A stretch of DNA of 64,000 nt, from contig CALXDC010000005.1 of the NCBI GenBank assembly GCA_944386975.1, forward strand, positions 12,959 through 76,958, in the 5' to 3' direction. The notes beneath the pieces were generated by a model. That model was given only the letters and a program-made list of their open reading frames with translations. It made no database searches and had not been told where the DNA came from. Below are positions 34,858 through 58,581 of this stretch, in pieces (the first letter of the stretch is position 1; each line of letters begins with the position of its first letter). This stretch comes from an uncultured Oscillospiraceae bacterium (GTDB taxonomy: Bacteria > Bacillota > Clostridia > Oscillospirales > Oscillospiraceae). Made by a program: the position numbers and the translations under genes.

Positions 34858-34933
34858 GCTGGAATAGCTCAGTCGGTAGAGCAGCTGATTCGTAATCAGC
34901 AGGTCGCGTGTTCGAGTCACGTTTCCAGCTCCA
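34858..34933 (+). tRNA. tRNA-Thr (anticodon CGT)
   Basis: Folded by hand: acceptor GCTGGAA/TTCCAGC, D arm GCTC/GAGC, anticodon stem GCTGA/TCAGC with loop TTCGTAA, T arm GCGTG-TTCGAGT-CACGT, encoded CCA. Confidence 0.92.
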
Positions 34934-35523: not shown

Positions 35524-35652
35524 AGCGGCGGGAGAAAAAATAGTGTACGGCGTCGATGCCGTTGTGGTATACTGAAAAAGAGCTTTGGCGCAACAGACAT
35601 TTTGCATGCAAAATGCCTGTTGTCGCCGTTTTGTGAAAAGGGAGGGAGCGAC

Positions 35653-38232
35653 ATGTCCGCTGGGGCGGGGAGAACAGAACCGGCCGTCCGGGGCGGGCGG
35701 CTGACCATTTTTGCCGGCTGTGCCCCGGGGACGGGGAAGACCTACGCCATGCTGCAGGCGGCCCTCCGGGCCCAGGCGGCAGGGGTGGATGTGGTGACCG
35801 GTACCGACGGCGGCCGGTGGCCGGAGACTCGGGCTCTGGCGGAGACGCTGGAGCGGCTGCCGGGGCGGGCGGAGGCGGGAGAGCTGGATCTGGATGCTGC
35901 ATTGGAGCGGGGCCCTGCCCTTCTGCTGGTAGACGATCTGGGGCGGCACAACGGTCCGGCATGCCGCCACAGAAAACGGTCGCAGGATGTGGAGGAGCTG
36001 CTGAAGGCGGGGGTGGACGTATACGCCACTTTGAATGTGACCTGTATTGAGAGCCTTCAGGACGCTGTTCAGTCCATTCTGGGCGAAAACCTGCCGGACC
36101 GGGTGCCGGACGGCGTGTTTGACGGTGCCTTCCAGGTGGTGTTGGCGGACTGGGATCCGTCGGGCCTTCCGGCACGGTTGGAGGGAAGGTTCACCTCCGC
36201 CCAGCTTACCGCTCTGCGGGAGCTGGCGCTCCGCCGCTGCGCCGACCGGCTGGCCCGGGAAAGCCGGGGAGAGCCGGAGGGATACCGGGCCGCCGAGCAC
36301 ATCCTGGTCTGCCTCTCATCCGCCCCCTCCAACGCCCGGATTATCCGCACCGCCGGGCGCATGGCCGACGCCTTCCACGGGGCGCTCACCGCGCTTTTTG
36401 TGGAGACGGGAGAGTTTCAGCACGTCTCTGGGGCGGACAGGGCCCGGTTGGAGGAGCACATCCGGCTGGCCCGGCAGCTGGGGGCCTCCATTGAGACGGT
36501 ATACGGGGACGATATTCCCTACCAGATTGCAGAATTTGCCCGCCTGTCGGGCGTGACGAAGATTGTCATCGGCCGCAGCGCCGTATCTCGTCGCACCCCC
36601 TGGGGAAAGCCTGTTCTGACGGAGCGGCTCATTGCGCTGGCGCCGGAGCTGGACATCCACATCATCCCCGACCAGGGGACGCTGACCGCCCCCCGCCGTC
36701 CCCGTCCTCTGGCGGCTTTTCTGGCTCCTCCGCCCCTGCGGGATCTGGCCAAGAGCGCCCTGCTGCTGGCGGCGGCCACCTTGACAGGTTTCATCTTCTA
36801 TTATTTTGGTCTGACAGAAGCCAACATCATCACCGTCTATCTTCTCAGCGTCATGCTCATTGCTGTGGTGACCAAAAGTTCGGTGTGCAGTTTTGTGGCC
36901 TCGGCAGGCAGCGTGCTGATTTTCAACTTCCTGTTCACCGATCCCCGATTTTCCCTTCACGCCTATGACAGCAGCTATCCCGTTACCTTTCTGGTGATGT
37001 TTCTGGCCGCCCTGCTCACCGGATCGCTGGCCACCAAGCTGAAGTCCCACGCCCAGCGATCCGCACAGCTGGCCTGGCGGACGGGGGTGCTCTTCGAGAC
37101 CAACCAGAGTCTTCAGAAGGCCGCCGACGCAGGGGAGATTCTGGCGGTGGCTGCCGGACAGCTGGTGAAGCTCTTCGGACGGGACGTGGCGGTCTACGAG
37201 GCCCGGCAGGGGGCGCTGGAGTCCCCGCGGATCTTTCCGGCAGGCGGCCAGAAGGGGGACTATCCCTGGGAGCGGCGGGTAGCGGAGTGGGTACTGAAGA
37301 ACAACCGACGGGCCGGAGCCGGGACAGAGACCTTTTCCGAGGCGCCCTGTCTCTATCTGGCGGTGCGGGCGGGGGACCGGGTCTACGGGGTGATCGGTCT
37401 GGCTGCCGGGGACCGCCCACTGGAGGCCTTTGAAAACAGCATCCTCCTCTCCATCCTGGGGGAGTGTGCCCTGGCCCTGGAGAGCCGGAGGAACGCCCGG
37501 GAAAAGGAGGAGGCCGCAGTGCTGGCCAAAAACGAGCAGCTGCGGGCCAATCTCCTCCGAGCCATTTCCCACGATCTTCGGACTCCCCTTACCTCCATCT
37601 CCGGCAACGCCGGCAACCTCCTCTCCCACGGTGCGCTTTTCGATGAGGAGACCAAGCGGCAGATGTACGAGGATATCTACGACGACGCCATGTGGCTGAT
37701 TAATCTGGTGGAGAATCTCCTGTCGGTCAGCCGGCTGGAGGAGGGACGCATGACGCTGCGGCTGTCCACGGAATTGATGGAGGAGGTGGTGGGAGAGGCC
37801 TTGCGCCATGTGGACAGGCGGAGCAAGGACTACCATCTGACGGTGGAGAGCGGACCGGAGTACCTGCTGGCCCGGATTGACGCACGACTCATCGTTCAGG
37901 TGCTCATCAACCTCATTGATAACGCCGTGAAGTATACCCCACCCGGCTCCCATATCACCATCACGTTGGGAAGAATGGGGGAGCAGGTGCGTGTGTCGGT
38001 AGCGGACGACGGTCCGGGAATTCCGAGAGAGATGCAGCAGCGGGTCTTCGACATGTTTTTTACCGGGGCCAACCGCATCGGGGACAGCCGCCGGAGCCTG
38101 GGGCTGGGGCTGGCCCTGTGCAAATCCATCGTCAGCGCCCACGGCGGGGAGATCTCCGTAGCGGACAACAAGCCCCACGGGGCGGTTTTTACATTTACGG
38201 TGCCATCCGGGGAGGTAGAGCTGCATGAATAA
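35653..38232 (+). CDS. kdpD: KdpD-type sensor histidine kinase
   Basis: ATG at 35653 after GGGAGGGAG. N-terminal KdpD P-loop GCAPGTGKTYAML, Usp-like region, four TM helices, GAF-like region, H-box ISHDLRTPL, HATPase (DDGPGI, GLGLALC). Confidence 0.88.
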   Translation: MSAGAGRTEPAVRGGRLTIFAGCAPGTGKTYAMLQAALRAQAAGVDVVTGTDGGRWPETRALAETLERLPGRAEAGELDLDAALERGPALLLVDDLGRHNGPACRHRKRSQDVEELLKAGVDVYATLNVTCIESLQDAVQSILGENLPDRVPDGVFDGAFQVVLADWDPSGLPARLEGRFTSAQLTALRELALRRCADRLARESRGEPEGYRAAEHILVCLSSAPSNARIIRTAGRMADAFHGALTALFVETGEFQHVSGADRARLEEHIRLARQLGASIETVYGDDIPYQIAEFARLSGVTKIVIGRSAVSRRTPWGKPVLTERLIALAPELDIHIIPDQGTLTAPRRPRPLAAFLAPPPLRDLAKSALLLAAATLTGFIFYYFGLTEANIITVYLLSVMLIAVVTKSSVCSFVASAGSVLIFNFLFTDPRFSLHAYDSSYPVTFLVMFLAALLTGSLATKLKSHAQRSAQLAWRTGVLFETNQSLQKAADAGEILAVAAGQLVKLFGRDVAVYEARQGALESPRIFPAGGQKGDYPWERRVAEWVLKNNRRAGAGTETFSEAPCLYLAVRAGDRVYGVIGLAAGDRPLEAFENSILLSILGECALALESRRNAREKEEAAVLAKNEQLRANLLRAISHDLRTPLTSISGNAGNLLSHGALFDEETKRQMYEDIYDDAMWLINLVENLLSVSRLEEGRMTLRLSTELMEEVVGEALRHVDRRSKDYHLTVESGPEYLLARIDARLIVQVLINLIDNAVKYTPPGSHITITLGRMGEQVRVSVADDGPGIPREMQQRVFDMFFTGANRIGDSRRSLGLGLALCKSIVSAHGGEISVADNKPHGAVFTFTVPSGEVELHE

Positions 38233-38923
38233 ACCCATGATCCTGGTGGTGGAGGACGACGCCCCCATCCGCAATCTCATTACCACCACTCTGCGGGCCC
38301 ATGACTACCGCTACCTCACCGCTGCCAATGGGGAGGGAGCCATTCTGGAGGCATCCTCCCACAATCCGGAGATCATGCTGCTGGATCTGGGCCTTCCGGA
38401 TATGGACGGGGTGGAGGTGATCCGGCGGGTTCGAACCTGGTCGGATCTGCCCATCATCGTCATCAGTGCCCGCAGCGAGGATGCGGATAAAATCGAGGCC
38501 TTGGACGCCGGAGCGGACGACTATCTCACCAAGCCCTTCTCGGTGGAGGAGCTGCTGGCCCGGCTGCGGGTGACGCAACGGCGGCTGGCGGCCCAGCGGC
38601 CCGGCGGCACGGTGGAGGCGGTGTTTACCAATGGTCGGCTGCGGGTGGACTACGCGGCGGGGTGTGCTTTCCTGGGGGAACAGGAGCTCCATCTCACCCC
38701 CAGCGAGTACAAGCTCCTGTGTCTGCTGTCCCGGAATGTGGGGAAGGTGCTGACTCACACCTACATCACCCAGCAGCTCTGGGGCCGCAGCTGGGACAAT
38801 GACGTGGCGTCCCTGCGGGTGTTCATGGCCACGCTTCGGAAAAAGCTGGAGCAGGAGCCCGGCTCGCCCCAGTATATCCAGACCCACATCGGCATCGGCT
38901 ATCGGATGCTCCGGGTAGAATAG
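38225..38923 (+). CDS. kdpE: OmpR-family response regulator (KdpE-like)
   Basis: 232 aa. ILVVEDDAPIRNL...LLDLGLPDMDG receiver domain and a winged-helix C-terminus. Overlaps the kdpD stop codon. Confidence 0.85.
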   Translation: MNKPMILVVEDDAPIRNLITTTLRAHDYRYLTAANGEGAILEASSHNPEIMLLDLGLPDMDGVEVIRRVRTWSDLPIIVISARSEDADKIEALDAGADDYLTKPFSVEELLARLRVTQRRLAAQRPGGTVEAVFTNGRLRVDYAAGCAFLGEQELHLTPSEYKLLCLLSRNVGKVLTHTYITQQLWGRSWDNDVASLRVFMATLRKKLEQEPGSPQYIQTHIGIGYRMLRVE

Positions 38924-39108
38924 GGAACCGCCGCTTCGGAGAGGACGCTCTCCCAAGCGGCGGCTCTTTTTGTGTTCTTCCAAGTGGAGATTTTGCGGTC
39001 TCTGGTGTGGGAACCCATCGGAAGAGGCATTCCCGGTCACAGAGATTCTCATCAGGGATGGAACATAGTTGGTTTACGATCAGTCCCCCATCATGCGCAT
39101 ATCAGGCG

Positions 39109-39480
39109 TCATTGCAGATGCCGCCCGACAAAAGTCCGAATGGCGTCAAAGCTCTCTGGACTGATGACATGCTCCATGCGGCAGGCATCCTCCGCCGCAA
39201 CCTTGGGGTCCACCCCCAGGGCCGATAACCAGTCGGTGAGAAAGGTGTGCCGCTCGTAGATCCGCCGGGCAATCTCCAGCCCTGCCGCGGTGAGAGAGAT
39301 GCGTCCGCCGCTGTCCACCTCCACATAGCCGTTTTCCCGGAGGTTTTTCATGGCAATGCTGACGCTGGGCTTGGAGAACGACAGTTCGGCGGCGATGTCG
39401 ATGGCCCGGGCGTAGCCGTTGCGTTGGGTGAGTACCAGGATGGTCTCCAGATAGTTTTCCGCAGATTCCTGTATTTTCAT
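39109..39480 (-). CDS. DtxR/MntR-family metal-dependent transcriptional regulator
   Basis: ATG at 39480. MKIQESAENYLETILVL...ARAIDIAAELSFSKPSVSIAMKNLRENGYV is the typical DtxR N-terminal HTH. Confidence 0.85.
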   Translation of the reverse strand: MKIQESAENYLETILVLTQRNGYARAIDIAAELSFSKPSVSIAMKNLRENGYVEVDSGGRISLTAAGLEIARRIYERHTFLTDWLSALGVDPKVAAEDACRMEHVISPESFDAIRTFVGRHLQ

Positions 39481-39888
39481 GTGGTCGCCTCCCCTTTGTC
39501 CCGGTAGAATGGATTCGATGCGTATCATAACGTTATCATTGTACCATGTCTCATCTGCTCGCGCAAGCAGATGACATTTTTCACCTTGAAATGTGTATCA
39601 TTAAAAAATGTTATTTATATGAAACACAAACGCAAAAACGGAAAGAGGGAAAGCAGTACCCCGGTTCCGAAAACTGGAAAGAACAGATCTGACAACTGAA
39701 AAATGGAACACATACACAAAAAAAGGAGGGAGATTTGTATATATCTCATAATGGTAAGCCGGTTGTAATCCCATCAGCAATATGGTACAATACCAGTAAA
39801 AATAGTTGCATTTTGTTTTTGTTTTTTACAAAAGTGTTGGAATAATCGCAAAAAGATATTCCAACACGAACCAGAGAGGAAGAGGGAA

Positions 39889-40815
39889 GTGGCCGGTGCC
39901 TACAGGATCTATATGGATGGCCGGGACGAGTGCCTGGGGTGGGAGGACCATCTCCTGCGGGAGCGGCAGGGGTCCTTCCTTCTGGCGTTTCTGGACCAGG
40001 ACTGGGAGGCGCTGGCCGATCAGGCCCAGGCGCTGCGGCGGCAGGCCTTCCACCTGGAGCAAATGTACGCGGGTTACCGCCGCTTGCGGGAAGAGTTTCA
40101 GGAGGCCCATCCCCTCTTCCGCCAGGAGCTGGACCGGATGGCGGACAGCGCCGACAGCCTTTATGCCGCCGGACAGTGGGCGGGGGAGATGGGACGCTTT
40201 CGCCGCCTGATGGCAGCGGCAGTGGAGCGGGTGCTGGACCGGGATACCGGGGCCGGCGGAGCCGGCGGCCGGTACCGCCAGCTGTTGGAGGAGGTCAGCG
40301 AGCTGTCCCGGCTGGCAGACCGTCTCCACGAGGGAGTGGGCGTTCAGTACGCCTTCGACAGCGGCCAGGGCCAGCTGTGCCTCACCGCCAGGGACCTTCG
40401 GGCACTGCTCTTTTTGTCCTTTGAATACCTGGTGTCCCAGGGGTACGCGCTGGGCCGCTGCCTCAACTGCGGGCGGTACTTTGTGCCCTTTTCGGTGAAC
40501 ACCTGTTACTGTGACCGGCCTGTGGGAGAAGGCCGAATCTGCAAGACCGCAGCGGCCAAGGTAAACTATACGAAAAAACTCCGGCAGGATCAGGCCCGGA
40601 GTCTCTACGCCAAGCAGAACAACACCTACCAGATGCGGGTCCGCCGGTCTCCGGAGCGGTATCCCGAGGAGGAGTACCGTCTCTGGCGGCAGCAGGCCAA
40701 AGAGCTGCTGGCCGCCACGGAGCGGGGCGAGCTGAGCTGGGAGGAATTTCAGCGCAAGATGGAGCTGCCCCGGCGGCGGGGCGGAGAAGAGAGGGATGTA
40801 TGGAACGGCAAGTGA
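39889..40815 (+). CDS. hypothetical Cys-rich protein, first gene of the BMC operon
   Basis: GTG start after GAGAGGAAGAGGGAA. Zinc-ribbon-like CLNCGRYFVPFSVNTCYCDRPVGEGRIC. Overlaps the ADH start by 16 nt. Confidence 0.55.
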   Translation: MAGAYRIYMDGRDECLGWEDHLLRERQGSFLLAFLDQDWEALADQAQALRRQAFHLEQMYAGYRRLREEFQEAHPLFRQELDRMADSADSLYAAGQWAGEMGRFRRLMAAAVERVLDRDTGAGGAGGRYRQLLEEVSELSRLADRLHEGVGVQYAFDSGQGQLCLTARDLRALLFLSFEYLVSQGYALGRCLNCGRYFVPFSVNTCYCDRPVGEGRICKTAAAKVNYTKKLRQDQARSLYAKQNNTYQMRVRRSPERYPEEEYRLWRQQAKELLAATERGELSWEEFQRKMELPRRRGGEERDVWNGK

Positions 40816-42014
40816 TCGAGCTGATGCAGCCCCGGCACACCCTCATCGGGGAGGGAAGCATTCGGGAGATTCCCCGGTATCTCCGGCGGCTTCAGGAGAA
40901 TATGAAGGCCCTGGTGGTGACGGACAAGGGCCTCGTGAAGATCGGAACCGCTCAAAAGGTCACCGGTGAACTGGACCGGGCGGGGGTGCGCTGGTGCCTC
41001 TATGACGGGGTGGAGCCAAACCCCACCGTGTCCATTGTGAACGAGGCCATGGACTGCTATCGCCGGGAGGGCTGCGGCTGCATCATTGCCATCGGCGGCG
41101 GTTCTCCCATTGACGTGGCCAAGGCGGTGAGCATCCTGGCAGAAAACGGCGGCAGGATCCAGGACTATCACGGGGTGAACAAGTCCCGGCGGCCCGGGGC
41201 CCCCATCGTGGCGGTGAACACCACTGCGGGTACCGGCAGCGAGGTGACCTGCGTTTATGTGATCACCGACGAAAAAGAAAATGTGAAAATGGTGATGATG
41301 GACCCCAACTGTCTGGCCTATCTGGCCATCGACGATCCCAGCCTTATGGTGGGGATGCCCCCGGCTCTGACGGCGGCCACCGGTATGGACGCTCTCACCC
41401 ACGCGGTGGAGTGCTACGTTTGCCGGGAGGCCACTCCCTATACCGACGGGCTGGCCCTGGAGGCCATCCGTCTGGTGGGCACGGCCCTGCGCCGGGCGGT
41501 GCGGGACGGCGGGGACATGAAGGCCCGGACAGACATGTGCTGGGCGGAGTATCTGGCGGGGCTGGCCTTCTCCAACGCAGGCCTCGGCCTTGGTCACAGC
41601 ATTGCCCACCAGCTGGGAGCCCAATACCACACCCCCCACGGGGAGGCCTGCGCCCAGATTCTGCCCCGGGTGATGGAGTATAACGCCCCCGCCTGCCTCG
41701 GGCGGATGGGGGATATTGCCAAGGCTTTGGGGGCGGATCTCCAGGGGCTCACGGAGGAGGAGGCCGCCCATCTGGCGGCGGACTGTGTCCGGGACCTCTG
41801 CGACGATATCGGCATCCGTCCCCTCCACGCCTGCGGCTTCTCCATGGATGATATCGGTCTTCTCTCCCGGCATGCCATGGAGGACACCTGTGTACCTTCC
41901 AACCCCGTGACTCCCACGGAGGAGGAAGTGGGCCGTATTCTGGCCAAAGCCTACTGTGAGGGGCTGGTGGTGGAGGCTATCCGCCAGCGCGCTGCGGGAA
42001 AGGAGAACCCATGA
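40800..42014 (+). CDS. iron-containing alcohol dehydrogenase (PduQ/EutG-like)
   Basis: 404 aa. GGGSPIDVAKA, TTAGTGSEVT, and the His cluster HAVECY...GHSIAHQLG...HGEA. Confidence 0.88.
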   Translation: MERQVIELMQPRHTLIGEGSIREIPRYLRRLQENMKALVVTDKGLVKIGTAQKVTGELDRAGVRWCLYDGVEPNPTVSIVNEAMDCYRREGCGCIIAIGGGSPIDVAKAVSILAENGGRIQDYHGVNKSRRPGAPIVAVNTTAGTGSEVTCVYVITDEKENVKMVMMDPNCLAYLAIDDPSLMVGMPPALTAATGMDALTHAVECYVCREATPYTDGLALEAIRLVGTALRRAVRDGGDMKARTDMCWAEYLAGLAFSNAGLGLGHSIAHQLGAQYHTPHGEACAQILPRVMEYNAPACLGRMGDIAKALGADLQGLTEEEAAHLAADCVRDLCDDIGIRPLHACGFSMDDIGLLSRHAMEDTCVPSNPVTPTEEEVGRILAKAYCEGLVVEAIRQRAAGKENP

Positions 42015-42658
42015 GCGGCAATAAGATCATCATTCAAGACCGGCAGCAGCAGCAGATCACCACCTATGTGATCTATCGGGAGACGGGACGGATTTTCGTT
42101 CCTGCCGCCGCCTCCAACCGCCATGTCCATCTCACCACGGCAACCCTGGAGCGGCTCTTCGGCCCCGGCTACCAGCTGACTCCCATCAAGGATCTCTCCC
42201 AGCCCGGCCAGTACGCCGCCGCAGAGACAGTGACGGTGGCGGGACCCAAGGGGGAGCTGAAGAAGGTCCGGGTGCTGGGGCCGGTGCGGAAGGAAGATCA
42301 GGTGGAGATCTCCCGTACCGATTCCTTCCAGCTGGGGGTGAAGCCGGTGGTGCGGATGTCCGGCGATGTGGCCGGAACCCCGGGGTGCCGGCTCATCGGC
42401 CCGGTGGGGGAGGCGGAGCTTCCCCAGGGGGTTATCGTGGCTGCGCGGCATCTCCATCTCTCGAAGGAGCAGTGTGAGACCTATGGCCTTCACGACGGGG
42501 AAGTGATCGCCCTGCGCAGCGCCGGGGAGCGGTCCGCTGTGCTGGAGAATGTGGTGGTCCGGTCTGGGCCGGGCCACGACATGGAGGTCCATTTAGATAC
42601 CGACGAGGCCAACGCCATGGCCATGCCCAACGGCGAGATGCTGGAGGTTATCCGATAG
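42011..42658 (+). CDS. pduL: phosphate acyltransferase PduL
   Basis: 215 aa. Two PduL repeats with SNRHVHLT and ARHLHLS. ATGA overlap with the ADH gene. Confidence 0.85.
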   Translation: MSGNKIIIQDRQQQQITTYVIYRETGRIFVPAAASNRHVHLTTATLERLFGPGYQLTPIKDLSQPGQYAAAETVTVAGPKGELKKVRVLGPVRKEDQVEISRTDSFQLGVKPVVRMSGDVAGTPGCRLIGPVGEAELPQGVIVAARHLHLSKEQCETYGLHDGEVIALRSAGERSAVLENVVVRSGPGHDMEVHLDTDEANAMAMPNGEMLEVIR

Positions 42659-42673
42659 AATAGGACGAGTGCA

Positions 42674-43309
42674 ATGGACAGAGAACAGCTGCACAAGTTG
42701 ATCGAAGAGGTCACCGGCGAGGTGGAGGCCCGTCTGGCCCGGAAAAACGGCAGCAAACCCCAGGGAAAACGGGTGCTGCTGCTGGCGGGGCCTCCGGCCT
42801 TCCCTCAGGACCTGGAGGCCTGCCTTCTCTCCCGGGGCGGCGGGTGGACCACGGCAGATCTCAGCGCCGAGAACGCTCCGGACCGGAATACCCTCCAGGA
42901 GCTGGTGAGCCGGGCGGAGGAGGTGGCCCTGGCCGCGCCCCCCATTGCCCTTCTGCGGGAAATTGCCGACGGGGAGGATGGTTCGGACCTGGCTTATCTG
43001 ATGATCCGGGCCATTTTGTGGGGAAAGCGGACCGCGCTTCTCCTGGACTTTGACCCGCCCCGGTTCCGGCGCAACAGCCTTCTCGGCCAGGTGGCCGAGG
43101 CGGTGGAGGCTCTTCAGTCCATGGAGGTGGAGGTGGTGAACTACCGCCGCAGCCGTCCTCGGACGGAGCCTTTGGAGTTGGTGACGGAGGAGGCGGTGCG
43201 CCGGGCGGCCAAGAGTCGGGAACGGACCCTTCGCTGCGCCGTGAACGCCATCATCACCCCCTCCGCCCGGGACGCCATCCGGGAACTGGGGGTGGAGATC
43301 CAATATTAA
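42674..43309 (+). CDS. BMC-associated protein, PduM-like (tentative)
   Basis: 211 aa. N-terminal amphipathic helix DREQLHKLIEEVTGEVEARL. The C-terminus LVTEEAVRRAAKSRERTLRCAVNAIITPSARDAIRELGVEI resembles the PduM C-terminus as I remember it. Sits between pduL and a pduN-like gene. Confidence 0.45.
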   Translation: MDREQLHKLIEEVTGEVEARLARKNGSKPQGKRVLLLAGPPAFPQDLEACLLSRGGGWTTADLSAENAPDRNTLQELVSRAEEVALAAPPIALLREIADGEDGSDLAYLMIRAILWGKRTALLLDFDPPRFRRNSLLGQVAEAVEALQSMEVEVVNYRRSRPRTEPLELVTEEAVRRAAKSRERTLRCAVNAIITPSARDAIRELGVEIQY

Positions 43310-43321
43310 AGGAGTGACGCT

Positions 43322-43639
43322 ATGCAGTTGGCGAGAGTAAAGGGGACGGTGGTGAGCACCAACAAGGCGGAGACCCTGCTGGGGATGAAACTTTTGCTGG
43401 TGAAGCCCATCGATATCGAGACCTGGGAGGAGAAGGGCGACGTGCTGGTAGCCATTGACGCCGTGGGCGCCGGAGAGGGCGAGGTGGTGATGGTGGTCAG
43501 CGGCAGCTCCTCCCGTCAGACGGAAGTCACCGTCAACCGCCCCACAGACCTCACCATCGCCGCCATTGTGGATACGGTGGACGTGGGAGGACGCCGGGTC
43601 TTTGAGAAGTTTGTGAAGGAGGCCGGGGAGACCCGGTAA
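43322..43639 (+). CDS. BMC vertex pentamer (BMC-P, EutN/PduN/CcmL family), paralog 1
   Basis: MQLARVKGTVVSTNK... is the typical EutN-fold N-terminus. 105 aa. Confidence 0.85.
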   Translation: MQLARVKGTVVSTNKAETLLGMKLLLVKPIDIETWEEKGDVLVAIDAVGAGEGEVVMVVSGSSSRQTEVTVNRPTDLTIAAIVDTVDVGGRRVFEKFVKEAGETR

Positions 43640-43673
43640 GGCATTGCAGGCAGAAAGCCGAGGTGGCACGAGA

Positions 43674-44987
43674 ATGGACCTGAAGGAACTGGTAAAGAAC
43701 GCGGGGATCTTGGGTGCGGGCGGCGCGGGCTTCCCCACCCATGTGAAGATCAGCTGTCAGGCGGAGGTGGTCATCGTCAACGGGGCCGAGTGCGAGCCCC
43801 TGCTGCGGGTGGACCAGCAGATAATGGAGTTGTACGCCCGGGAAGTGGTGGAAGGCCTCCGGCTGGTGGTGGAGCACACCGGCGCCAAAGAAGGGGTTAT
43901 CGCTCTGAAGGCACACTACAAAGGGGCGGTGGCGGCGCTTACGGAGGTTGTCCAGGGAATGGGCAACATCCGGCTGCACCTCCTTCGGGCCTACTATCCC
44001 GCCGGAGATGAGCAGCAGATCGTCTATGAGGTTACCGGAAAGGTGGTGCCAACCGGGGGATTGCCGTTAGACGTAGGGGCGGTGGTGTGCAACGCCAGTA
44101 CGCTTCTCAACGTGGCTCGGGCCGCCGAGGGAAAGAAAGTGGTGGAGAAGTACGTTACCATAGGCGGCGCGGTAGGCCAGCCCAAGACGGTGAAGGTGCC
44201 GGTGGGCATGTCCTGCAGGGAGCTTCTGGAGGCCGCCGGCGGGGTGACGGAGCCCTGTCGGTATCTCATGGGCGGGCCCTGTATGGGCCGGGTGTTAAAG
44301 GACCTGGATGAGCCGGTGACCAAGACCACCGGGGGCCTTCTGGCCATTCCGGAGGACCACCCCTACTGGCAGCTTCGGGAGGAGAAGCTGAACCTGCAGC
44401 GCATCCAGGCGGTGTGCTGCCAGTGCTCCATGTGCACTCAGATGTGTCCCCGCAACGCATTGGGCCTCAATGTCCAGCCTCACAAGGCCATGCGGACCAT
44501 TGCCCAGGGGGTGGACCTTCTGGGGGATGTGAACGGTATCTTCTCCTGCTGCAACTGCGGTTTGTGTACTTACTACGCCTGTAACTTCGGTCTCCATCCT
44601 TCTCAGGTGATGCAGCAGCTGAAGGGGGCGCTCATGGCCAAGGGGGTACGCCCCCGGAAGGAGGTGTTTACCTCTGCAGACCGGGGCCTGGAGAACAAGA
44701 AAGTGCCGGTGAAGCGGCTTGTAGCGCGGTTGGGACTGACGGACTACGACGTGGCCGCCCCCCTGGAGGACCGGCTCCTCCAGACGGACCGGGTACGGAT
44801 TTTGCTCCGCATGGGTGTGGGAGCCCCCAGCGTGCCGGTGGTCTCTGTGGGAGACAAGGTGCGGAAGAACACACTGGTGGCCGATATTGCTCCGGATAAA
44901 TTGGGGGTCAAGATGCACGCCAGCATCTCCGGCACGGTGACCGCCGTGACGGATGGGTATATTGAGATAAGGAAGGCGACGGTATGA
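43674..44987 (+). CDS. pduS: PduS-like Fe-S flavoprotein (RnfC/NuoF-like with SLBB domain and two 4Fe-4S motifs)
   Basis: ATG at 43674 after GAGGTGG. GAGGAGFPTHVK. Cys clusters CQCSMCTQMCP and CNCGLCTYYAC. Confidence 0.8.
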   Translation: MDLKELVKNAGILGAGGAGFPTHVKISCQAEVVIVNGAECEPLLRVDQQIMELYAREVVEGLRLVVEHTGAKEGVIALKAHYKGAVAALTEVVQGMGNIRLHLLRAYYPAGDEQQIVYEVTGKVVPTGGLPLDVGAVVCNASTLLNVARAAEGKKVVEKYVTIGGAVGQPKTVKVPVGMSCRELLEAAGGVTEPCRYLMGGPCMGRVLKDLDEPVTKTTGGLLAIPEDHPYWQLREEKLNLQRIQAVCCQCSMCTQMCPRNALGLNVQPHKAMRTIAQGVDLLGDVNGIFSCCNCGLCTYYACNFGLHPSQVMQQLKGALMAKGVRPRKEVFTSADRGLENKKVPVKRLVARLGLTDYDVAAPLEDRLLQTDRVRILLRMGVGAPSVPVVSVGDKVRKNTLVADIAPDKLGVKMHASISGTVTAVTDGYIEIRKATV

Positions 44988-45529
44988 ACGCATTAGGGAT
45001 GATCGAGGTGACCAGCATCCCCGCCGGTGTGGAGGCGGGAGATGCCATGCTGAAAGCCGCCGCTGTGGAGCTGGTAACGGCCCAGAGCGTCTGCGCGGGA
45101 AAATACATTGTCCTCATCACCGGCGAGGTGGCGGCGGTGCGGGAGAGCGTGGCGGCAGGAAAGGCTGCTGCGGGAATGAAGCTGGTGGACAGCATGGTCA
45201 TTCCCCGGGTCCACCCCCAGGTGCCCAAGGCCATCAATGCCTGCACGGAGATCGGCCGGGTGGCCGCCGTGGGGGTGATGGAGGCCTTCTCCCTGTGCGC
45301 AGCGGTTCAAGCGGCAGACGCGGCGGTGAAGGCTGCCGATGTGGCGCTGATGGAGGTCCGGTTGGGCCGGGGCCTTGGGGGCAAGTCCTTCATCCTCCTC
45401 ACCGGGGAGGTGGCGGCGGTGAAGGCCGCTGTGGAGGCGGCGGAGAGCCGGGAGGAGACGGCGGGGCTGATGAACGACAGCGCCGTGATCCCCGCTCCCC
45501 ATCCGGATATGATCCGGGCCCTGTATTAA
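44984..45529 (+). CDS. pduT: tandem-domain BMC shell protein (BMC-T, PduT-like)
   Basis: 181 aa with two BMC domains. SVCAGKY (Cys37) aligns with the KTICPGKF pore cysteine of PduT. Confidence 0.8.
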   Translation: MNALGMIEVTSIPAGVEAGDAMLKAAAVELVTAQSVCAGKYIVLITGEVAAVRESVAAGKAAAGMKLVDSMVIPRVHPQVPKAINACTEIGRVAAVGVMEAFSLCAAVQAADAAVKAADVALMEVRLGRGLGGKSFILLTGEVAAVKAAVEAAESREETAGLMNDSAVIPAPHPDMIRALY

Positions 45530-45608
45530 GTCAGGTTTCTGCCCGGGGAACTTCCCTGGAGAACATACAACGAATACGATTTGAGACGATCATCAGGAGG
45601 ATACGACT

Positions 45609-45884
45609 ATGAAATTAGCGCTGGGTATGGTGGAGACCAGAGGACTCATCGGCGCCATTGAGGCGGCAGACGCCATGGTGAAGGCGGCCAATGTGAAGCT
45701 CATCGGCAAGGAGCAGATCGGCTCCGGTCTGGTGACGGTGATGGTCCGCGGGGACGTGGGTGCGGTGAAGGCCGCTGTGGAGGCCGGTTCCTCCGCCGCC
45801 AAGGCGGTGGGCGAGCTCTACGGCGTCCATGTGATCCCCTCTCCCCACGACGACGTGGAGGCCATCCTGCCGAACATCGGCTGA
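45609..45884 (+). CDS. BMC hexamer shell protein (BMC-H, PduA/EutM-like), copy 1
   Basis: [57 protein letters not shown] is the canonical BMC-H sequence. Confidence 0.93.
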
Positions 45885-45889
45885 GTCCC

Positions 45890-46168
45890 ATGTACGTGGG
45901 CGAGGTAGTGGGCTGCGTGGTGGCTACCGCCAAGGCGGAGGGCCTTCGCAACGTGCCCCTTCTGGTGGTGCAGCGGATGGAGGACGGACAGCGGGGGGAA
46001 CTGCTGGTGGCGGCGGACGCCACCGGTCAGGCAGGCCGGGGAGACCGGGTCTACCTGGTGGGAGCCCGGGAGGCCTCCCGGATCTTCCGGCGGCCCCTGG
46101 TCCCTTCCGACGCCTCCATCGTGGGCTTTATTGATTCCTACAACCGATCCATTCAACAAGACAGATAA
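45890..46168 (+). CDS. BMC vertex pentamer (BMC-P), paralog 2
   Basis: 92 aa. MYVGEVVGCVVATAKAEGLRNVPLLVV... has the EutN-fold pattern. Confidence 0.8.
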   Translation: MYVGEVVGCVVATAKAEGLRNVPLLVVQRMEDGQRGELLVAADATGQAGRGDRVYLVGAREASRIFRRPLVPSDASIVGFIDSYNRSIQQDR

Positions 46169-46180
46169 GGAGAAACAGGT

Positions 46181-46459
46181 ATGAAGTTAGCACTTGGTAT
46201 GGTAGAGACCCGGGGCCTCGTGGGGGCCATTGAGGCGGCGGACGCCATGGTGAAGGCCGCCAACGTGAAGCTCATCGGCAAGGAGCAGATCGGTTCCGGT
46301 CTGGTGACGGTGATGGTCCGCGGGGACGTGGGCGCGGTGAAAGCCTCCGTGGAGGCCGGCGCCTCCGCCGCCAAGCGGGTGGGCGAACTTTACGGCGTCC
46401 ATGTGATTCCCTCTCCCCACGACGATGTGGAGGCCATTTTGCCCACGGTGAAGGACTGA
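46181..46459 (+). CDS. BMC hexamer shell protein (BMC-H), copy 2
   Basis: Differs from copy 1 at 4 of the first 88 residues. Confidence 0.93.
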
Positions 46460-46463
46460 TTCC

Positions 46464-46751
46464 ATGCGGATGGCGCGGGTGGCGGGGAACGTGGTGTCCA
46501 CCGTCAAGGACAGGGATTACGCCGGACAGAAGCTGCTGATCGTGGATTTTCTGGACGAGACGGGCCGCCCCACCGGTGAGACCGCCATTGCCTTCGACGC
46601 GGCCCAGGCCGGCGTGGGGGACGTGGTGCTGGTGTGCATCGACGGCGGTGCTTCCGCCATCCTGCTGGGTCAGAAGGTAATTGCCGATGTGACCATCTGC
46701 GGCGTGGTGGATAGCGTGACCCTGGAGGGGGACACCAAAAACTATCTGTAG
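46464..46751 (+). CDS. BMC vertex pentamer (BMC-P), paralog 3
   Basis: 95 aa. MRMARVAGNVVSTVKDRDYAGQKLLIV... has the EutN-fold pattern. Confidence 0.8.
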   Translation: MRMARVAGNVVSTVKDRDYAGQKLLIVDFLDETGRPTGETAIAFDAAQAGVGDVVLVCIDGGASAILLGQKVIADVTICGVVDSVTLEGDTKNYL

Positions 46752-46809
46752 AAAGCAAGACCGTCCCGCCGGACAATAATGTGCCGGCGGGACGGCGAAG
46801 CATACCCAA

Positions 46810-47541
46810 ATGGGGGGAGAGGGGGAGACCATGGACCGGGGAGAGATTATTTCGGAGGTGGAGCGGCAGATGCTTCGCTCTGCCAGGCGGCGTCCCGGCC
46901 GGGGGACCTTCCTCTGGACGCCCGCCGACGCCGACGGAGCCCTGGCGGCAGAGATACTGTGTCCCCTCTGCACCCCGGAGCGGGTGGAACGGGTGTGCCG
47001 GACGGCCCGGCGGCGTGGGGCGGCGTCGGTGACGCTGCTGCCCCACTTTGTTCTCCAGGGCCGCCGGCTCCTGGCCGGCAGCGCCACGGCCCTGACGGCG
47101 GCGGTGGGCTACCCGTGGGGGTCCCTCACTTCCGCTGCCCGCACCGCTCTGGCCAAGGACTGTCTTGCCGCCGGGGCGGACGAGCTGGAGATCTCTCTGG
47201 ATCTGGCGGCGGTGAAGTCCGGGGCCCTGGCGGGGGAGCAGGAGGCCCTTGCGGAGCTGGTGCGGCTGGCCCGGTCCGCCGGGCGGGCCCTCTCCGTGCG
47301 GGTGCCCCTTCGAAAGCTCACTGAGGCCGAGCAGGTGGCGGTGCTGACGGCTCTCCGCCGCTGCGGGGCGGATCTGGCGGTGCTGGACAGATGCGCCGAT
47401 CCGGCGGACGTGGCTCTGGCTCGGGAGCTGCTGGGGGGCCAGATGGCGGCGGCCGCCTCTACCGGGGAGGAGGAGGACTTCACTTTGGCCCGGGCGCTCT
47501 TGGAGGCGGGAGCCATGCGGGTGGGCGTGTCCGCCCCCTGA
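46810..47541 (+). CDS. DeoC/DERA-family aldolase-like protein lacking the catalytic lysines
   Basis: Aligns by eye with DERA: ...GAASVTLLPHFV..AAVGYPWGS..GADELEISLDLAAVKSG..GAMRVGVSA. The likelier start is the ATG at 46831, after GGGGGAGAGGGGGAG. There is no Lys in the last 74 residues. Confidence 0.6.
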   Translation: MGGEGETMDRGEIISEVERQMLRSARRRPGRGTFLWTPADADGALAAEILCPLCTPERVERVCRTARRRGAASVTLLPHFVLQGRRLLAGSATALTAAVGYPWGSLTSAARTALAKDCLAAGADELEISLDLAAVKSGALAGEQEALAELVRLARSAGRALSVRVPLRKLTEAEQVAVLTALRRCGADLAVLDRCADPADVALARELLGGQMAAAASTGEEEDFTLARALLEAGAMRVGVSAP

Positions 47542-47586
47542 GGCGGTGATTTTTTGTCCCCTCGGTTGCCGGGACCGGCGCTTGTC

Positions 47587-47761
47587 TGCCCGCTGACGGG
47601 GCCGTGCGTTTTTGTCGGTACCCGACGGCGTACTGTCTGGTGTTTTGCCTCCGGCGGCCTACTTTTCTTTGAGAAGAAAAGTAGGCCGCCGGAGGCAAAA
47701 ACACCTGCCGACGTGCGTCGGCCATCGACAAAACAACCCCGCCCCGCCCGGTCAGCGGGCA
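47587..47761. repeat. 175-bp nested imperfect palindrome with a perfect 27-bp-arm central hairpin
   Basis: Central arms 47643-47669 and 47674-47700 (ttttgcctccggcggcctacttttctt and its complement). Outer arms tgcccgctgac (47587) and gtcagcgggca (47751). Each flank has its own small hairpin. Confidence 0.8.
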
Positions 47762-47872
47762 AAAACCGTTGTGCGGCGGAGTTTCCGGAAAATTAACCCT
47801 GCCGCCTCTTGCAATGGCGGAGCCTTTGGTGCAAACTATAGGGGAGAACGGATCAAATGAGGAGGAACCGTT

Positions 47873-48676
47873 ATGCCATCCCACTATGCCCACTGGTACT
47901 TTGGCCATCTGGTCCGCAAGGCCCTGCCCGTGCCGCTGCGGACCATGCTCCGCAGCGATCCCGCCGCCTATCTGGCGGGGCTTCAGGGGCCGGACGTACT
48001 GTTTCACTACCATCCCCTGCTGCCAAACTCCGTGCGGAGAGAGGGGACTGCCATCCACCGCCGGTCGGGAATGTACTTCTTTGTAGCGGCCCGGGAGGCG
48101 CTGCTCCAGCAGGACAGCTCCTCCGCCCGGAGCTATCTGGCCGGGGCACTGTGCCACTACATGCTGGACTCCGCCTGCCACCCCCTGGTGGCCCAGGCCA
48201 TGGAGGACACAGGCTTTACCCACAGCGAGGTGGAGACGGAGCTGGACCGGGCGCTTATGGCGGCGGCGGGAATGGACCCCTATGAACGGCCCTCTATGGA
48301 CCTGCTGCCCGCCTCCCGTGCCTTGGGGCGGATCATGGCCCCCTTCTACCGGCCGGTAACGGCGGCTCAGATCGAGGCGGCCCTCCACGGCATGCGCCGG
48401 GACATCCGGCTCACCCGGGTCCGCAGCGACAGCATTCGGGAGGCCATTTTTTGGATTCTTCGCCGCACCGGTACCTACGCCGGATACCGCGGAATCTTCT
48501 TCTCCCCCACGGCAGCCCCGGGCTGCGGGGAGGCGGTGGAGGTGCTGGCGGCCCGGCTGCGGGAGACCGTGAGCCCTGCCGTGGAGGAGATGCAGGCCTT
48601 TTTCGATTCAGTGGACGGGGAAGCGCCGCTGAGGCCGCGGCTGAAACTGAACTTTGGAGGGACCGATGAAGGGTAA
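47873..48676 (+). CDS. zinc-dependent phospholipase C-family protein
   Basis: 267 aa. MPSHYAHWYFGH start and further His/Asp positions typical of the Zn-PLC fold. No signal peptide. Confidence 0.6.
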   Translation: MPSHYAHWYFGHLVRKALPVPLRTMLRSDPAAYLAGLQGPDVLFHYHPLLPNSVRREGTAIHRRSGMYFFVAAREALLQQDSSSARSYLAGALCHYMLDSACHPLVAQAMEDTGFTHSEVETELDRALMAAAGMDPYERPSMDLLPASRALGRIMAPFYRPVTAAQIEAALHGMRRDIRLTRVRSDSIREAIFWILRRTGTYAGYRGIFFSPTAAPGCGEAVEVLAARLRETVSPAVEEMQAFFDSVDGEAPLRPRLKLNFGGTDEG

Positions 48677-49901
48677 ACTGACGGCGCTGGAGCGCAGCTG
48701 GGTTCTCTACGATGTGGGGAACTCCGCCTTTGTGATGATGACATCCACCATCATGCCAATTTTCTTCAAGAATCTCACCGCCGCCCAGGGGGTGGCGGAC
48801 CACACCTCCACCGCCTGGTGGAGCTACGCCACGGCGGTGTGTACCCTGACGGTGGCGGTGCTGGGTCCCCTGCTGGGAGGCGTGGCGGACCGCCGGGGGT
48901 GGAAACGGCAGATTTTTATGGTGTTTCTGGCTCTGGGGTGCCTCTGCTGTGCCCTTTTGGGCTGGTCCGGGAGCTGGATGGTGTATCTGGCGCTTTTTGT
49001 TTTGGCCAAGATCGGCTTTTCCGGCAGCCTGGTGTTCTACGACGCCATGCTGCCGGATGTGACGGAGGACGACCGGGTGGATATGGTGTCCTCCCAGGGC
49101 TACGCCTGGGGCTACATCGGCTCCTGCGTGCCCTTTGTGGCCTCCCTGGGGCTGGTGCTGACGGCGGAGCAGACCGGCATCGGCACCGCCCGGGCCACCG
49201 CCTTCGCCTTCCTTCTGACGGCGGTGTGGTGGCTGGGGGCCACCACACCTCTTCTCCGGCGGTACCGGCAGACCCGCTTTGCCGAGGGTACTGCCGCCAC
49301 GGCAGCCCGACAGCTGCGGGAGACCGTGAGGGAGCTGTGGCGCATCCGCCGCATCCGCCTCTTCCTTCTGGCCTTTTTCTTCTATATCGACGGGGTCTAC
49401 ACCATCATCGACATGGCCACCTCCTATGGCAAGGACGTGGGCATCGGGGATACGGATCTGGTGCTGGCCCTGCTGCTGACCCAGGTGGTGGCCTTCCCCT
49501 TCGCCCTCCTCTTCGGCCGCATGGCCGGCCGGTTCCGGACGGAGAGCCTCCTCCAGGTGTGTATTCTGGGCTACTTCTTCGTGGCCCTCTTTGCCCTGCA
49601 GCTGGATAAGGCCTGGGAGTTCTGGTTTCTGGCGGTGTGTGTGGCGGTGTTCCAGGGAGCCATCCAGGCCCTGTCCCGGTCCTGCTTTGCCAAAATCATC
49701 CCCAAGGACAAGGCGGGGGAGTATTTCGGGTTTTACGACATCTTCGGCAAGGGGGCGTCCTTCTTCGGTGCGGTGCTCATGGGCGTCTCCACCCAGCTCT
49801 TTGAGACCTCCAAGGCAGGGGTGGTGGCTCTGGCGCTGCTGTTTCCCCTGGGACTTTTCCTGCTGCGCCGGTCCATGGCTCTGGACGGCGAAAAGATGTA
49901 A
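48666..49901 (+). CDS. MFS transporter (UMF1/Atg22-like family)
   Basis: ATG at 48666 after GGAGGGA. MKGKLTALERSWVLYDVGNSAF is the typical UMF1 N-terminus. Twelve-TM profile. Confidence 0.8.
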   Translation: MKGKLTALERSWVLYDVGNSAFVMMTSTIMPIFFKNLTAAQGVADHTSTAWWSYATAVCTLTVAVLGPLLGGVADRRGWKRQIFMVFLALGCLCCALLGWSGSWMVYLALFVLAKIGFSGSLVFYDAMLPDVTEDDRVDMVSSQGYAWGYIGSCVPFVASLGLVLTAEQTGIGTARATAFAFLLTAVWWLGATTPLLRRYRQTRFAEGTAATAARQLRETVRELWRIRRIRLFLLAFFFYIDGVYTIIDMATSYGKDVGIGDTDLVLALLLTQVVAFPFALLFGRMAGRFRTESLLQVCILGYFFVALFALQLDKAWEFWFLAVCVAVFQGAIQALSRSCFAKIIPKDKAGEYFGFYDIFGKGASFFGAVLMGVSTQLFETSKAGVVALALLFPLGLFLLRRSMALDGEKM

Positions 49902-58120: not shown

Positions 58121-58581
58121 CTATGGAACGGATCGCCAGCTTTCAGGTGGACCACACCAAGCTCAAGCCGGGGATGTACCTGTCCCGCCGGGACGGAGAC
58201 GTGAGCACCTTCGATCTCCGCTTCAAGGTACCCAACACCAGAGACCTGCTCACCAACGCGGAGATGCACTCGGTGGAGCATATCATCGCCACCCTCCTGC
58301 GCAACTCCCCCCAGAAGGATGCGGTGATCTACTTCGGCCCCATGGGCTGCCAGACCGGATTCTATGTCCTGCTGGACAGCCGGCAGCTCACCGACCAGCA
58401 GGCCGTGGAGCTGGTGCAGACCGTCTTCGCCCAGGGGGCGGCCTACGACGGGGAGATGCCCGGCAAGAGCGCCGCGGAATGCGGAAATTATGGTAACCTG
58501 GAGGTCTCCCTGGCCAACGCCCAGTGTGCCTACTTCAGCGGCGTCATCGCCGGCTGGACGGCGGACAAGCTGGCCTATTGA
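58117..58581 (+). CDS. luxS: S-ribosylhomocysteine lyase
   Basis: 154 aa. SFQVDHTKLKPG, HSVEHIIA (HxxEH metal site), GPMGCQTGFY. Confidence 0.93.
   Translation: MTMERIASFQVDHTKLKPGMYLSRRDGDVSTFDLRFKVPNTRDLLTNAEMHSVEHIIATLLRNSPQKDAVIYFGPMGCQTGFYVLLDSRQLTDQQAVELVQTVFAQGAAYDGEMPGKSAAECGNYGNLEVSLANAQCAYFSGVIAGWTADKLAY

Follow-up and report, generated by a model that had tools for sequence, protein, structure and literature searches.

A bacterial microcompartment operon of an uncultured Oscillospiraceae bacterium, very probably a reduced descendant of the SPU4 locus type

The window analysed here is a stretch of 64,000 nucleotides from contig CALXDC010000005.1 of an uncultured Oscillospiraceae bacterium (assembly GCA_944386975.1, positions 12,959 to 76,958), and its subject is a bacterial microcompartment (BMC) operon at 39889-47541. 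In the list of open reading frames (ORFs) of the window, twelve genes on the + strand (g1 to g12) form a single operon, with spacing that ranges from a 16-nt overlap to 79 nt. All twelve have a coding-type codon composition (high GC3, low GC2) in a window of 63% GC. A preliminary description made from the letters alone had listed twelve co-directional, tightly packed genes, and this list is borne out by their coordinates, by GC3 and by the Pfam, NCBIfam and PDB sequence searches used to identify the genes. Comparison with related loci indicates that the operon is very probably a reduced descendant of SPU4, a locus type of the sugar-phosphate (SPU) class, and has parted with its aldehyde dehydrogenase (AldDH), its catalytic deoxyribose-phosphate aldolase (DERA, DeoC) and its triose-phosphate isomerase (TPI, or TIM).

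Three of the genes encode redox and acyl-transfer enzymes. The product of g2 (40800-42014) is an iron-containing (group III) alcohol dehydrogenase (Fe-ADH; matches at 4e-63 and 3e-52) of the FucO/ADH2/DhaT/MDH group with a conserved C-terminal tail of ~17 aa; the Fe-ADHs of the complete SPU4 locus L023 (introduced below) and of Anaerotruncus colihominis share 63% and 79% identity with it, respectively. It is followed by g3 (42011-42658), a PduL-type phosphotransacylase (PTAC; PF06130, 5.7e-73; NF011652, 252 bits vs a cut-off of 209) that shares 67% identity with the L023 enzyme. The third, g6 (43674-44987; the start is probably 43674, as in public assemblies, with 43644 as alternative), is a PduS-type NADH/FMN/2x[4Fe-4S] oxidoreductase with Complex1_51K (8e-46), SLBB, Fer4_17 and RnfC_N domains and 72-80% identity to the PduS proteins of SPU4 loci.

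The shell genes comprise three BMC-P paralogs, g5 (43322-43639; PF03319, 5e-27), g9 (45890-46168; PF03319, 2e-18) and g11 (46464-46751; PF03319, 9e-21), which are respectively 77, 63 and 60% identical to P1, P2 and P3 of L023. The tandem-BMC protein g7 (44984-45529; two BMC domains, 2.8e-46; TIGR02526, 4.9e-36) is a PduT-like BMC-T(s), whose pore cysteine (SVCAGKY) is kept across all lineages and whose identity is 78-82% to SPU4 T proteins and 82% to the T protein of A. colihominis. Two BMC-H genes, g8 (45609-45884; PF00936, 5e-29) and its near-duplicate g10 (46181-46459; PF00936, 1.4e-29), are 89.9% identical at the nucleotide level; g8 is 90-93% identical to SPU4 BMC-H proteins and carries an IGSG pore motif, and the BMC-H pore motif is unchanged among the lineages compared. 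The retained shell is complete, with two BMC-H, one Fe-S-type BMC-T and three BMC-P.

Three further proteins complete the operon. The first gene, g1 (39889-40815), was described earlier as a Cys-rich unknown protein and can now be named a DUF6076 protein of 308 aa (PF19553, 2.9e-14), whose C-terminal domain carries four invariant cysteines. The DUF6076 gene is unbroken in the window, and six further contigs of this species also carry it whole; it is split into two ORFs in the metagenome-assembled genome (MAG) GCA_949293875.1 (L007 3059-3985; L015 7216-8142), which could be an assembly error or a strain-level inactivation. For g4 (42674-43309) no Pfam match was obtained and the PDB sequence search was also empty. 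The earlier label 'PduM-like' does have a marginal match behind it (TIGR04493, E 0.0075, 16 bits vs a cut-off of 50), but it is weakly founded, as the match to eut_hyp TIGR02536 is equally weak (E 0.01). An AlphaFold2 (AF2) model of g4 (pLDDT 82.6) shows a Rossmann-like domain preceded by a helix at residues 3-24 and a low-confidence disordered linker. The nearest PDB folds are the HFCD-type flavoproteins TvaF, EpiD, UbiX and PPC decarboxylase (E from 2.6e-4, TM 0.4-0.5), in agreement with the BMC locus catalogue, which relates the eut_hyp-type protein of SPU4 to pfam02441 (PMC8217296). Since its orthologs occupy the same position in SPU4 loci, with the most distant relative (L023) at 40% identity, g4 is taken to be the eut_hyp-type protein of SPU4, with a flavoprotein fold and an encapsulation peptide at its N-terminus.

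The last gene, g12 (46831-47541), is a DeoC/DERA paralog (PDB DERA 5dbu, 1.7e-17) with an N-terminal encapsulation peptide; its start is probably 46831, giving the 236-aa form of public assemblies, with 46810 as alternative; an exact look-up matched the 236-aa form and gave nothing for the longer one. It scores 60 bits against the curated DeoC family TIGR00126, vs a cut-off of 117, and lies below the Pfam threshold too. Its N-terminal helix is amphipathic (hydrophobic moment, muH, 0.83), and in g4 and g12 alike an amphipathic N-terminal helix followed by a linker is retained. The families of the DERA-like protein and of g4 are both very small, with eight and ten clusters at 90% identity, respectively.

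The preliminary description stated that no acylating aldehyde dehydrogenase and no recognisable signature enzyme are encoded here, and both statements hold for the window. No other ORF of the 64 kb carries an Aldedh domain in Pfam, tblastn with SPU4 AldDH returned nothing at E<=0.1, and a profile built from 20 SPU4 AldDHs gave a best E of 1.8 against all six-frame ORFs. Sister contigs likewise have no AldDH within 10 kb of the cassette. Domain searches found no PduCDE, reactivase or PduP domain among the window ORFs; tblastn with the L023 TIM (pfam00121) and the L020 RpiB (pfam02502) found nothing relevant in the window, and tblastn found no second DeoC gene there. A class II aldolase, kinase or isomerase of the DHAP-shunt type (DHAP, dihydroxyacetone phosphate) is also missing from the 64 kb. 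Of the metabolosome core (AldDH, PTAC, alcohol dehydrogenase and signature enzyme), only PTAC and alcohol dehydrogenase are therefore present in the window.

Several genes elsewhere in the window were considered as sources of an aldehyde and rejected. An FGGY kinase (14290-15837), a LUD-domain gene, a D-lyxose isomerase and a D-serine ammonia-lyase lie 5-25 kb off, are differently oriented and ordinary, and have no aldolase alongside. An MTA/SAH nucleosidase (MtnN; TIGR01704, 89 bits vs a cut-off of 74) and LuxS at 57431-58581, 10 kb downstream of the operon, were read as the housekeeping activated-methyl cycle rather than a DHAP shunt; the nucleosidase would yield 5-deoxyribose and methylthioribose, and the window holds no DHAP-shunt genes.

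The relationship to SPU4 was established through L023, a human-gut MAG contig identical to L024, which was reached via the most distant g4 relative and bridges the operon to complete SPU4 loci. Its gene order is DUF6076, Fe-ADH, PTAC, g4, P, AldDH, PduS, T, H, H, P, H, P, a weak-scoring DeoC, canonical DeoC and TIM. All twelve operon genes have orthologs in L023 in conserved order (e.g., PduS 72%, T 78% and H 90-95% identity), and DUF6076, 40% identical between the two, opens the cassette in complete SPU4 loci (L023/L024, L048) as it does in all four AldDH-less cassette lineages described below. Across complete SPU4 loci the window operon is collinear at 40-95% protein identity. The AldDH gene of these loci lies between the first BMC-P and PduS (directly 3' of P1 in L023), where the window has a gap of 4-34 nt between g5 and g6, and the canonical DeoC and TIM genes follow the g12 ortholog.

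A wider sample was obtained by scanning an AldDH profile over one genome per GTDB species, which gave 80 best loci at 62-100% identity. About 50 of the 80 share much of the window architecture, and these SPU4-like loci come from Faecousia and other Oscillospiraceae, Christensenella hongkongensis, Synergistales, Pseudoflavonifractor and Treponema. Where contigs of Oscillospiraceae, Christensenellaceae and Synergistales extend to the locus end, TIM follows both DeoC paralogs; more distant loci differ. RpiB was found in none of the fetched SPU4 loci with a housekeeping RpiB query, a weak negative given that SPU RpiB may be too divergent. In the C. hongkongensis SPU4 locus (L050 15019-17303), a SorC/DeoR-type regulator (PF04198) and a zinc alcohol dehydrogenase lie between the two DeoC paralogs; the DUF6076-bearing lineages have no SorC/DeoR-type regulator in the locus.

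The published SPU4 type comprises AldDh, pfam01791, PTAC, pfam00121 and an eut_hyp-type protein with an N-terminal encapsulation peptide; its shell has a triplet of BMC-P and a similar pair of BMC-H, joined in some of the loci by a PduS-associated BMC-T, and RpiB is optional (18/29 loci; PMC8217296; PMC11585597). The window shares with this type its gene order and orthology (L023/L024, L048, Faecousia, Christensenella), PTAC, the tagged eut_hyp-type protein, the BMC-P triplet, two near-identical BMC-H, PduS with BMC-T(s), shell identities of 60-95%, an N-terminally encapsulation-tagged protein of the pfam01791 family and the Fe-ADH, which is present in some SPU4 loci. It differs in having no AldDH, which is universal and a curation criterion in Dwyer et al. 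(PMC11585597), and in lacking the signature enzyme, a catalytic DERA, as well as TPI and RpiB, while its sole DeoC-family protein is without the Schiff-base lysine. In descent and architecture the operon is consequently SPU4, but it falls outside SPU as defined by function, namely by DERA together with AldDH.

This assignment alters the earlier view of the locus in several respects. The comparison with the SPU class was a correct lead, and the verdict that the operon fits no nameable type was overstated, given its collinearity and identity with complete SPU4 loci. The gene set matches a defined type only in part: architecture and descent are those of SPU4, but the match is not one-to-one because AldDH, catalytic DERA and TPI are missing. 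The pdu-like L-M-N...S-T order, which had been said to mirror the pdu operon, is not supported as the informative resemblance. Homologues of PduQ, PduL, PduN, PduS, PduT and PduA do stand in a similar relative order, yet PduCDE, PduGH, PduO and PduP are absent, the PduM match of g4 is marginal, and orthology lies with SPU4, not PDU. The unknown-function (BUF) class was compared through BUF2 and BUF3. The catalogue rule (Sutter 2021) names any BMC locus without AldDh a BUF, and the window falls under this rule; BUF2 (methyltransferase, Cys-motif protein, BMC-Tdp) and BUF3 (aminotransferase, deamidase, PFOR domains, BMC-Tdp), however, have other shell sets and share no enzyme with the window.

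The AldDH-less architecture is not confined to the window. Several metagenome assemblies, as well as MAG GCA_949293875.1, contain contigs 99.6% identical to it, and the 12-gene cassette was also found in three further lineages, with DERA-like proteins 85%, 74% and 61% identical to g12; the most distant of these (61%) has a different genomic neighbourhood on both sides. At 2.7 kb downstream of the cassette this lineage (L020 12434-15656) has a GntR regulator, RpiB and a split transketolase; DERA in SPU loci usually has RpiB as its partner, and the presence of RpiB here could be a remnant of a sugar-phosphate context or a coincidence.

A fifth lineage is A. colihominis, recovered as DERA-like clusters at 59% identity. 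The upstream part of its locus encodes an ABC permease, an APH/MtnK-like kinase, an IF-2B/MtnA-like isomerase, DeoR, a class II aldolase and a 367-aa membrane-anchored protein, after which comes a shell module in the order Fe-ADH, g4, P, PduS, T, H, P, H, P and DERA-like. This module is shared with the window at 59-90% identity and falls in the same clade, and neither AldDH nor PTAC is encoded in the locus; loci of this type (L001-L004, L106) are also without TPI or catalytic DERA. The two differ in that A. colihominis has the MtnK-/MtnA-like genes and the aldolase upstream and no PduL or DUF6076, whereas the window has DUF6076 and PduL and no aldolase; tblastn with the A. colihominis aldolase, IF-2B protein and 367-aa protein found no match in the window. 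The aldolase bears a C-terminal extension of ~90 aa ending in an amphipathic helix (...MEDIVDIVRQVMARAKR), which we read as a C-terminal encapsulation peptide. In this respect A. colihominis resembles the class II aldolase metabolosomes (PVM, PVM-like, ACI), in which a C-terminally tagged aldolase sits inside a BMC-P-triplet shell, and it would follow the principle of PVM-type compartments and the DHAP shunt (MtnK-MtnA-Ald2), whereby the aldolase frees DHAP and a short aldehyde in the shell. PVM and ACI differ in that both have an AldDH (in ACI in a satellite locus), and the window has no class II aldolase, kinase or isomerase.

The AldDH scan also returned a second set of BMC loci (L055, L060, L061, L064, L070, L074, L080, L085, L091 and others), in which class II aldolase, MtnK (TIGR01767, 415 bits vs 275) and MtnA (TIGR00512, 405 vs 279) adjoin PTAC, AldDH, PduS and BMC-T/H/P; L070 (2780-18795) additionally encodes a CoA transferase, Dak1/Dak2 and LacI. 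This set looks like a metabolosome-housed DHAP shunt for 5-deoxyribose and methylthioribose. Among open-access papers and preprints, no paper was found that links microcompartments to the DHAP shunt, nor any description of AldDH-less SPU4 derivatives or dead DERA paralogs.

In a neighbour-joining (NJ) tree of PduS and T proteins, built with no bootstrap, the five AldDH-less lineages are monophyletic, nested among SPU4 loci and sister to Oscillospiraceae SPU4, with the Christensenella, Synergistales and Pseudoflavonifractor loci outside this group. Because the AldDH-less lineages form one clade, a single loss of AldDH, DERA and TPI is the parsimonious reading. Trees in the catalogue label the PduT proteins of Christensenella ('Catabacter ABBA15k') and Anaerotruncus as SPU4 (that of Anaerotruncus as Ts_strawberry/SPU4), and both Sutter 2021 (PMC8217296) and the human-microbiome survey of Asija 2021 list A. 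colihominis among the holders of SPU4. The catalogued A. colihominis locus is most likely the AldDH-less locus found here. Given that this locus has no AldDH, PTAC, TPI or catalytic DERA and does have MtnK/MtnA-like genes and a class II aldolase, the published deoxyribose/DNA-degradation label of the A. colihominis compartment is probably wrong.

The fate of the DeoC paralogs was followed in an alignment of 30 DeoC-family proteins, which included both paralogs from 13 complete SPU4 loci and the five AldDH-less lineages. Residues are given in E. coli DERA numbering, cross-checked on the FVKTSTGF and GVKASGG motifs and the 5dbu PDB alignment. In all 13 complete loci the two paralogs stand side by side (L024-L087; e.g., L024 14684-16411), and both retain D102, K137, K167 (the Schiff base) and K201. 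FVKTSTGF and GVKASGG are the motifs of the canonical SPU4 DeoC; the second type has YVKIQN, IKIDGG and D16 -> E, retains the catalytic lysines and matches the canonical paralog in constraint. The role of this second paralog is not discussed in the consulted portions of the SPU literature. By orthology g12 belongs to the second type, with 105 bits to the weak-scoring second DeoC of L023 vs 74 bits to the canonical DeoC. The four positions D102/K137/K167/K201 read E/S/V/A in the window and the 85% lineage (with C47 -> T), E/S/T/K in the 74% lineage, E/S/S/K in the 61% lineage and E/S/A/K in the DERA-like protein of A. colihominis. The suspicion that the DERA is inactive is hence confirmed at the level of residues and, since catalytic residues are replaced in all five lineages, the class I aldolase mechanism is evidently gone in the whole AldDH-less clade.

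In the window, as in the contigs of four lineages that lie dS 0.2-0.8 apart, all 12 ORFs are intact. Between the window and the 85% lineage, approximate dN/dS values by the Nei-Gojobori method (NG86) are 0.04-0.33 over the twelve genes, and deeper pairs are similar; PduL (0.06), PduS (0.09), Fe-ADH (0.095) and the shell proteins (0.04-0.07) are the most constrained, followed by g4 (0.125), DUF6076 (0.15), g12 (0.27) and P2 (0.33). For g12 the range is 0.27-0.38 among the lineages compared, against 0.07-0.15 for its catalytic-looking ortholog in complete SPU4 loci, so that g12 evolves two to four times faster. These ratios indicate that all twelve genes are under purifying selection. As the ORFs are intact, dN/dS is low, and the g4 and g12 helices and the PduT and BMC-H pore motifs have been kept, the operon is probably still functional.

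The operon very probably arose as follows. The common ancestor of the window lineage and A. colihominis deleted AldDH, catalytic DERA and triose-phosphate isomerase, and the retained second DeoC paralog afterwards lost its Schiff-base lysine. The SPU4-derived shell may still confine a short-chain aldehyde, generated by an enzyme encoded outside the operon, and the Fe-ADH would interconvert aldehyde and alcohol as the sole cis-encoded aldehyde chemistry. NAD(H) would be balanced by electron exchange of PduS with the cytosol through the Fe-S pore of PduT, and the dead DERA and g4 may serve as tagged cargo-organising proteins, not enzymes. Taken as a whole, the picture of a reduced SPU4 shell with Fe-ADH, PduL, PduS/PduT and dead DERA cargo, supplied with aldehyde from elsewhere, is judged to stand an even chance of being right. 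The specific mechanism of aldehyde reduction with a trans-encoded source is put forward tentatively, by analogy with A. colihominis, which places the DHAP-shunt trio directly upstream of the same AldDH-less module. The DHAP shunt yields DHAP and acetaldehyde or 2-methylthioacetaldehyde, which are reduced by alcohol dehydrogenases (PMC10986504; PMC6079011). PTAC has been dropped in A. colihominis, as expected where no acyl-CoA is made. More speculative is a microcompartment without any acylating AldDH at all, in which aldehyde would only be reduced by Fe-ADH, reducing power would enter via PduT/PduS, the dead DERA would act as scaffold, and the platform would be re-armed from one gut lineage to the next with another aldehyde-generating enzyme, the DHAP-shunt aldolase in the case of Anaerotruncus; this seems possible though somewhat doubtful.

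A number of points weigh against this picture of reduced shell and external aldehyde. No aldehyde-generating enzyme was found in the 64 kb, nor in sister contigs up to 10 kb from the cassette, which leaves the central step hypothetical, and the genomic evidence consists of the 64-kb window and the sister contigs. No encapsulation peptide is evident on Fe-ADH or PduL from their termini and hydrophobic moment, and the N-terminus of PduL differs from that in complete SPU4 loci. PduL has no obvious role absent an acyl-CoA source; its strong conservation would reflect either such a source in trans or service as the general phosphotransacylase of the cell. PduL-type enzymes are the phosphotransacylase of the cell in some Clostridia. 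Electrons could flow in either direction via PduS/PduT, and the NG86 estimates are approximate for a GC-rich genome with codon bias.

The first rival turns the chemistry around: in the manner of the ETU type, Fe-ADH would oxidise an alcohol, another AldDH elsewhere would convert the aldehyde to acyl-CoA, PduL would form the acyl-phosphate, and PduS/PduT would export electrons. This would suit the strong constraint on Fe-ADH, PduL and PduS/PduT (the most constrained enzymes, dN/dS 0.06-0.1), and an electron outlet is needed most if both steps make NADH; a PduS homologue has also been proposed as NAD+ recycler of SPU compartments. It requires, however, a further AldDH, no alcohol-related transporter or regulator adjoins the operon, and the sister lineage has lost PduL and gained an aldolase, which suggests that aldehyde is made inside rather than alcohol taken in. 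Alcohol oxidation is accordingly considered unlikely.

A split but complete SPU4 system, with AldDH, catalytic DERA and TPI in a satellite locus and deoxyribose 5-phosphate still degraded, is rather improbable. The ACI type is known to have AldDH genes in satellite loci, the marked conservation of PduL would fit continued acetyl-CoA production, and the search covered the window and the sister contigs. Against it stands the AldDH scan, in which the enzyme adjoins microcompartment genes of its own locus (PTAC, BMC-P and/or PduS) in all 80 best loci, with no orphan, and in which neither the window MAG, the L020 MAG nor Anaerotruncus is represented. SPU4 AldDH is highly conserved (72% identity between Oscillospiraceae and Christensenella), so a retained satellite copy should rank among the 80 matches, assuming that the species is in the collection. 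SPU4 is moreover described as generally without satellite loci (PMC8217296), the catalytic residues of the DeoC paralog are lost in every AldDH-less lineage, which fits chemistry abandoned rather than relocated, and A. colihominis has replaced the chemistry with a class II aldolase. These comparisons disfavour relocation of the SPU4 AldDH; they would stay compatible with a different kind of AldDH, or with a class II aldolase at some other place in the genome.

Slimmer still is the prospect of a hidden signature enzyme, in which DUF6076 or a remodelled DeoC barrel would have acquired a new catalytic activity. DUF6076 is the conserved first gene, has four invariant cysteines and gives a confident AF2 model (pLDDT 94, pTM 0.83) without a neighbour among PDB folds (best E 0.28), and g12 keeps many invariant residues together with a CxxC motif confined to the window clade. 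DUF6076 also heads complete SPU4 loci that have DERA, however, and g12 evolves faster than its catalytic-looking ortholog. In the DUF6076 family only residues 165-297 are widely conserved, as a Cys4 module over 1150 clusters at 50% identity with variable N-termini, and full-length relatives form three clusters. The structural search with g1 gave a single weak match, to a phage protein whose annotation is a TFIIB-type zinc ribbon. A generic family member has phage-type integrases on either side; a second lies on a contig of 1.9 kb with uninformative context, and a PHROGs search with g1 and g4 gave no match. The widespread Cys4 module, the zinc-ribbon match, the integrase neighbours and the presence in DERA-bearing SPU4 loci weakly favour a regulatory or DNA-binding role of DUF6076 over that of a hidden signature enzyme. 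Finally, a decaying, non-functional relic heading for loss might be suspected from three missing core genes and a catalytically dead fourth, from the broken DUF6076 gene in one MAG and from relaxed constraint on g12, g4 and P2, but it is highly improbable, as dN/dS in all twelve genes is low (0.04-0.38 across four lineages with intact ORFs), promoter-like and terminator-like signals are in place, and in A. colihominis, a member of the clade, recombination has brought the module together with new enzymes.

The significance of a reduced SPU4 operon lies in the status of the missing enzyme. An acylating AldDH is assumed to be the defining core of catabolic microcompartments, and recent SPU curation discards loci without one; here, in a whole clade of gut Clostridia, an SPU4-derived shell operon has stayed under purifying selection despite the loss of AldDH, DERA and TPI. 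The main interest is this clade-wide, selected loss of the metabolosome core, together with the label of the A. colihominis compartment, which is probably mistaken. Should the compartment be functional, metabolosome shells would be reusable as modular platforms whose redox core is minimal, an enzyme that is dead could stay on as cargo, and the 'DNA/deoxyribose degradation' label given to A. colihominis in human-microbiome surveys would probably be wrong. The cultivable A. colihominis offers a tractable test system, through feeding with 5-deoxyribose, methylthioribose or deoxyribose.

Signals around the operon are few. A sigma-70-like promoter site (TTGTAA-17-TACAAT with an extended -10 TG) lies on the + strand at 39763-39791, ~100 nt upstream of g1; the region 38900-48700 holds two such sites, which equals the chance expectation, so the position is suggestive only. 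A terminator-like GC hairpin with a T-run (47531-47556, + strand) overlaps the stop codon of g12. An Rfam search of the whole window returned one tRNA (34858-34930) and no riboswitch upstream of the operon, hence no hint of an inducer from that source. Domain searches agree with the earlier account of the flanking genes, namely a DtxR regulator, a Zn-PLC-like protein and an MFS transporter. Further upstream, a KdpD/KdpE two-component pair (35602-38923) stands without adjacent kdpABC, and a large serine recombinase with Resolvase, Recombinase and Zn-ribbon domains is encoded at 11069-12469. Downstream of g12, a perfect palindromic hairpin (TTTTGCCTCCGGCGGCCTACTTTTC...) occupies 47645-47700. In a 99.6%-identical strain (L006 10840-11360), a ~505-bp element with long terminal inverted repeats lies inside the loop of this hairpin and looks like an insertion resembling a miniature inverted-repeat transposable element (MITE) that targets the hairpin.

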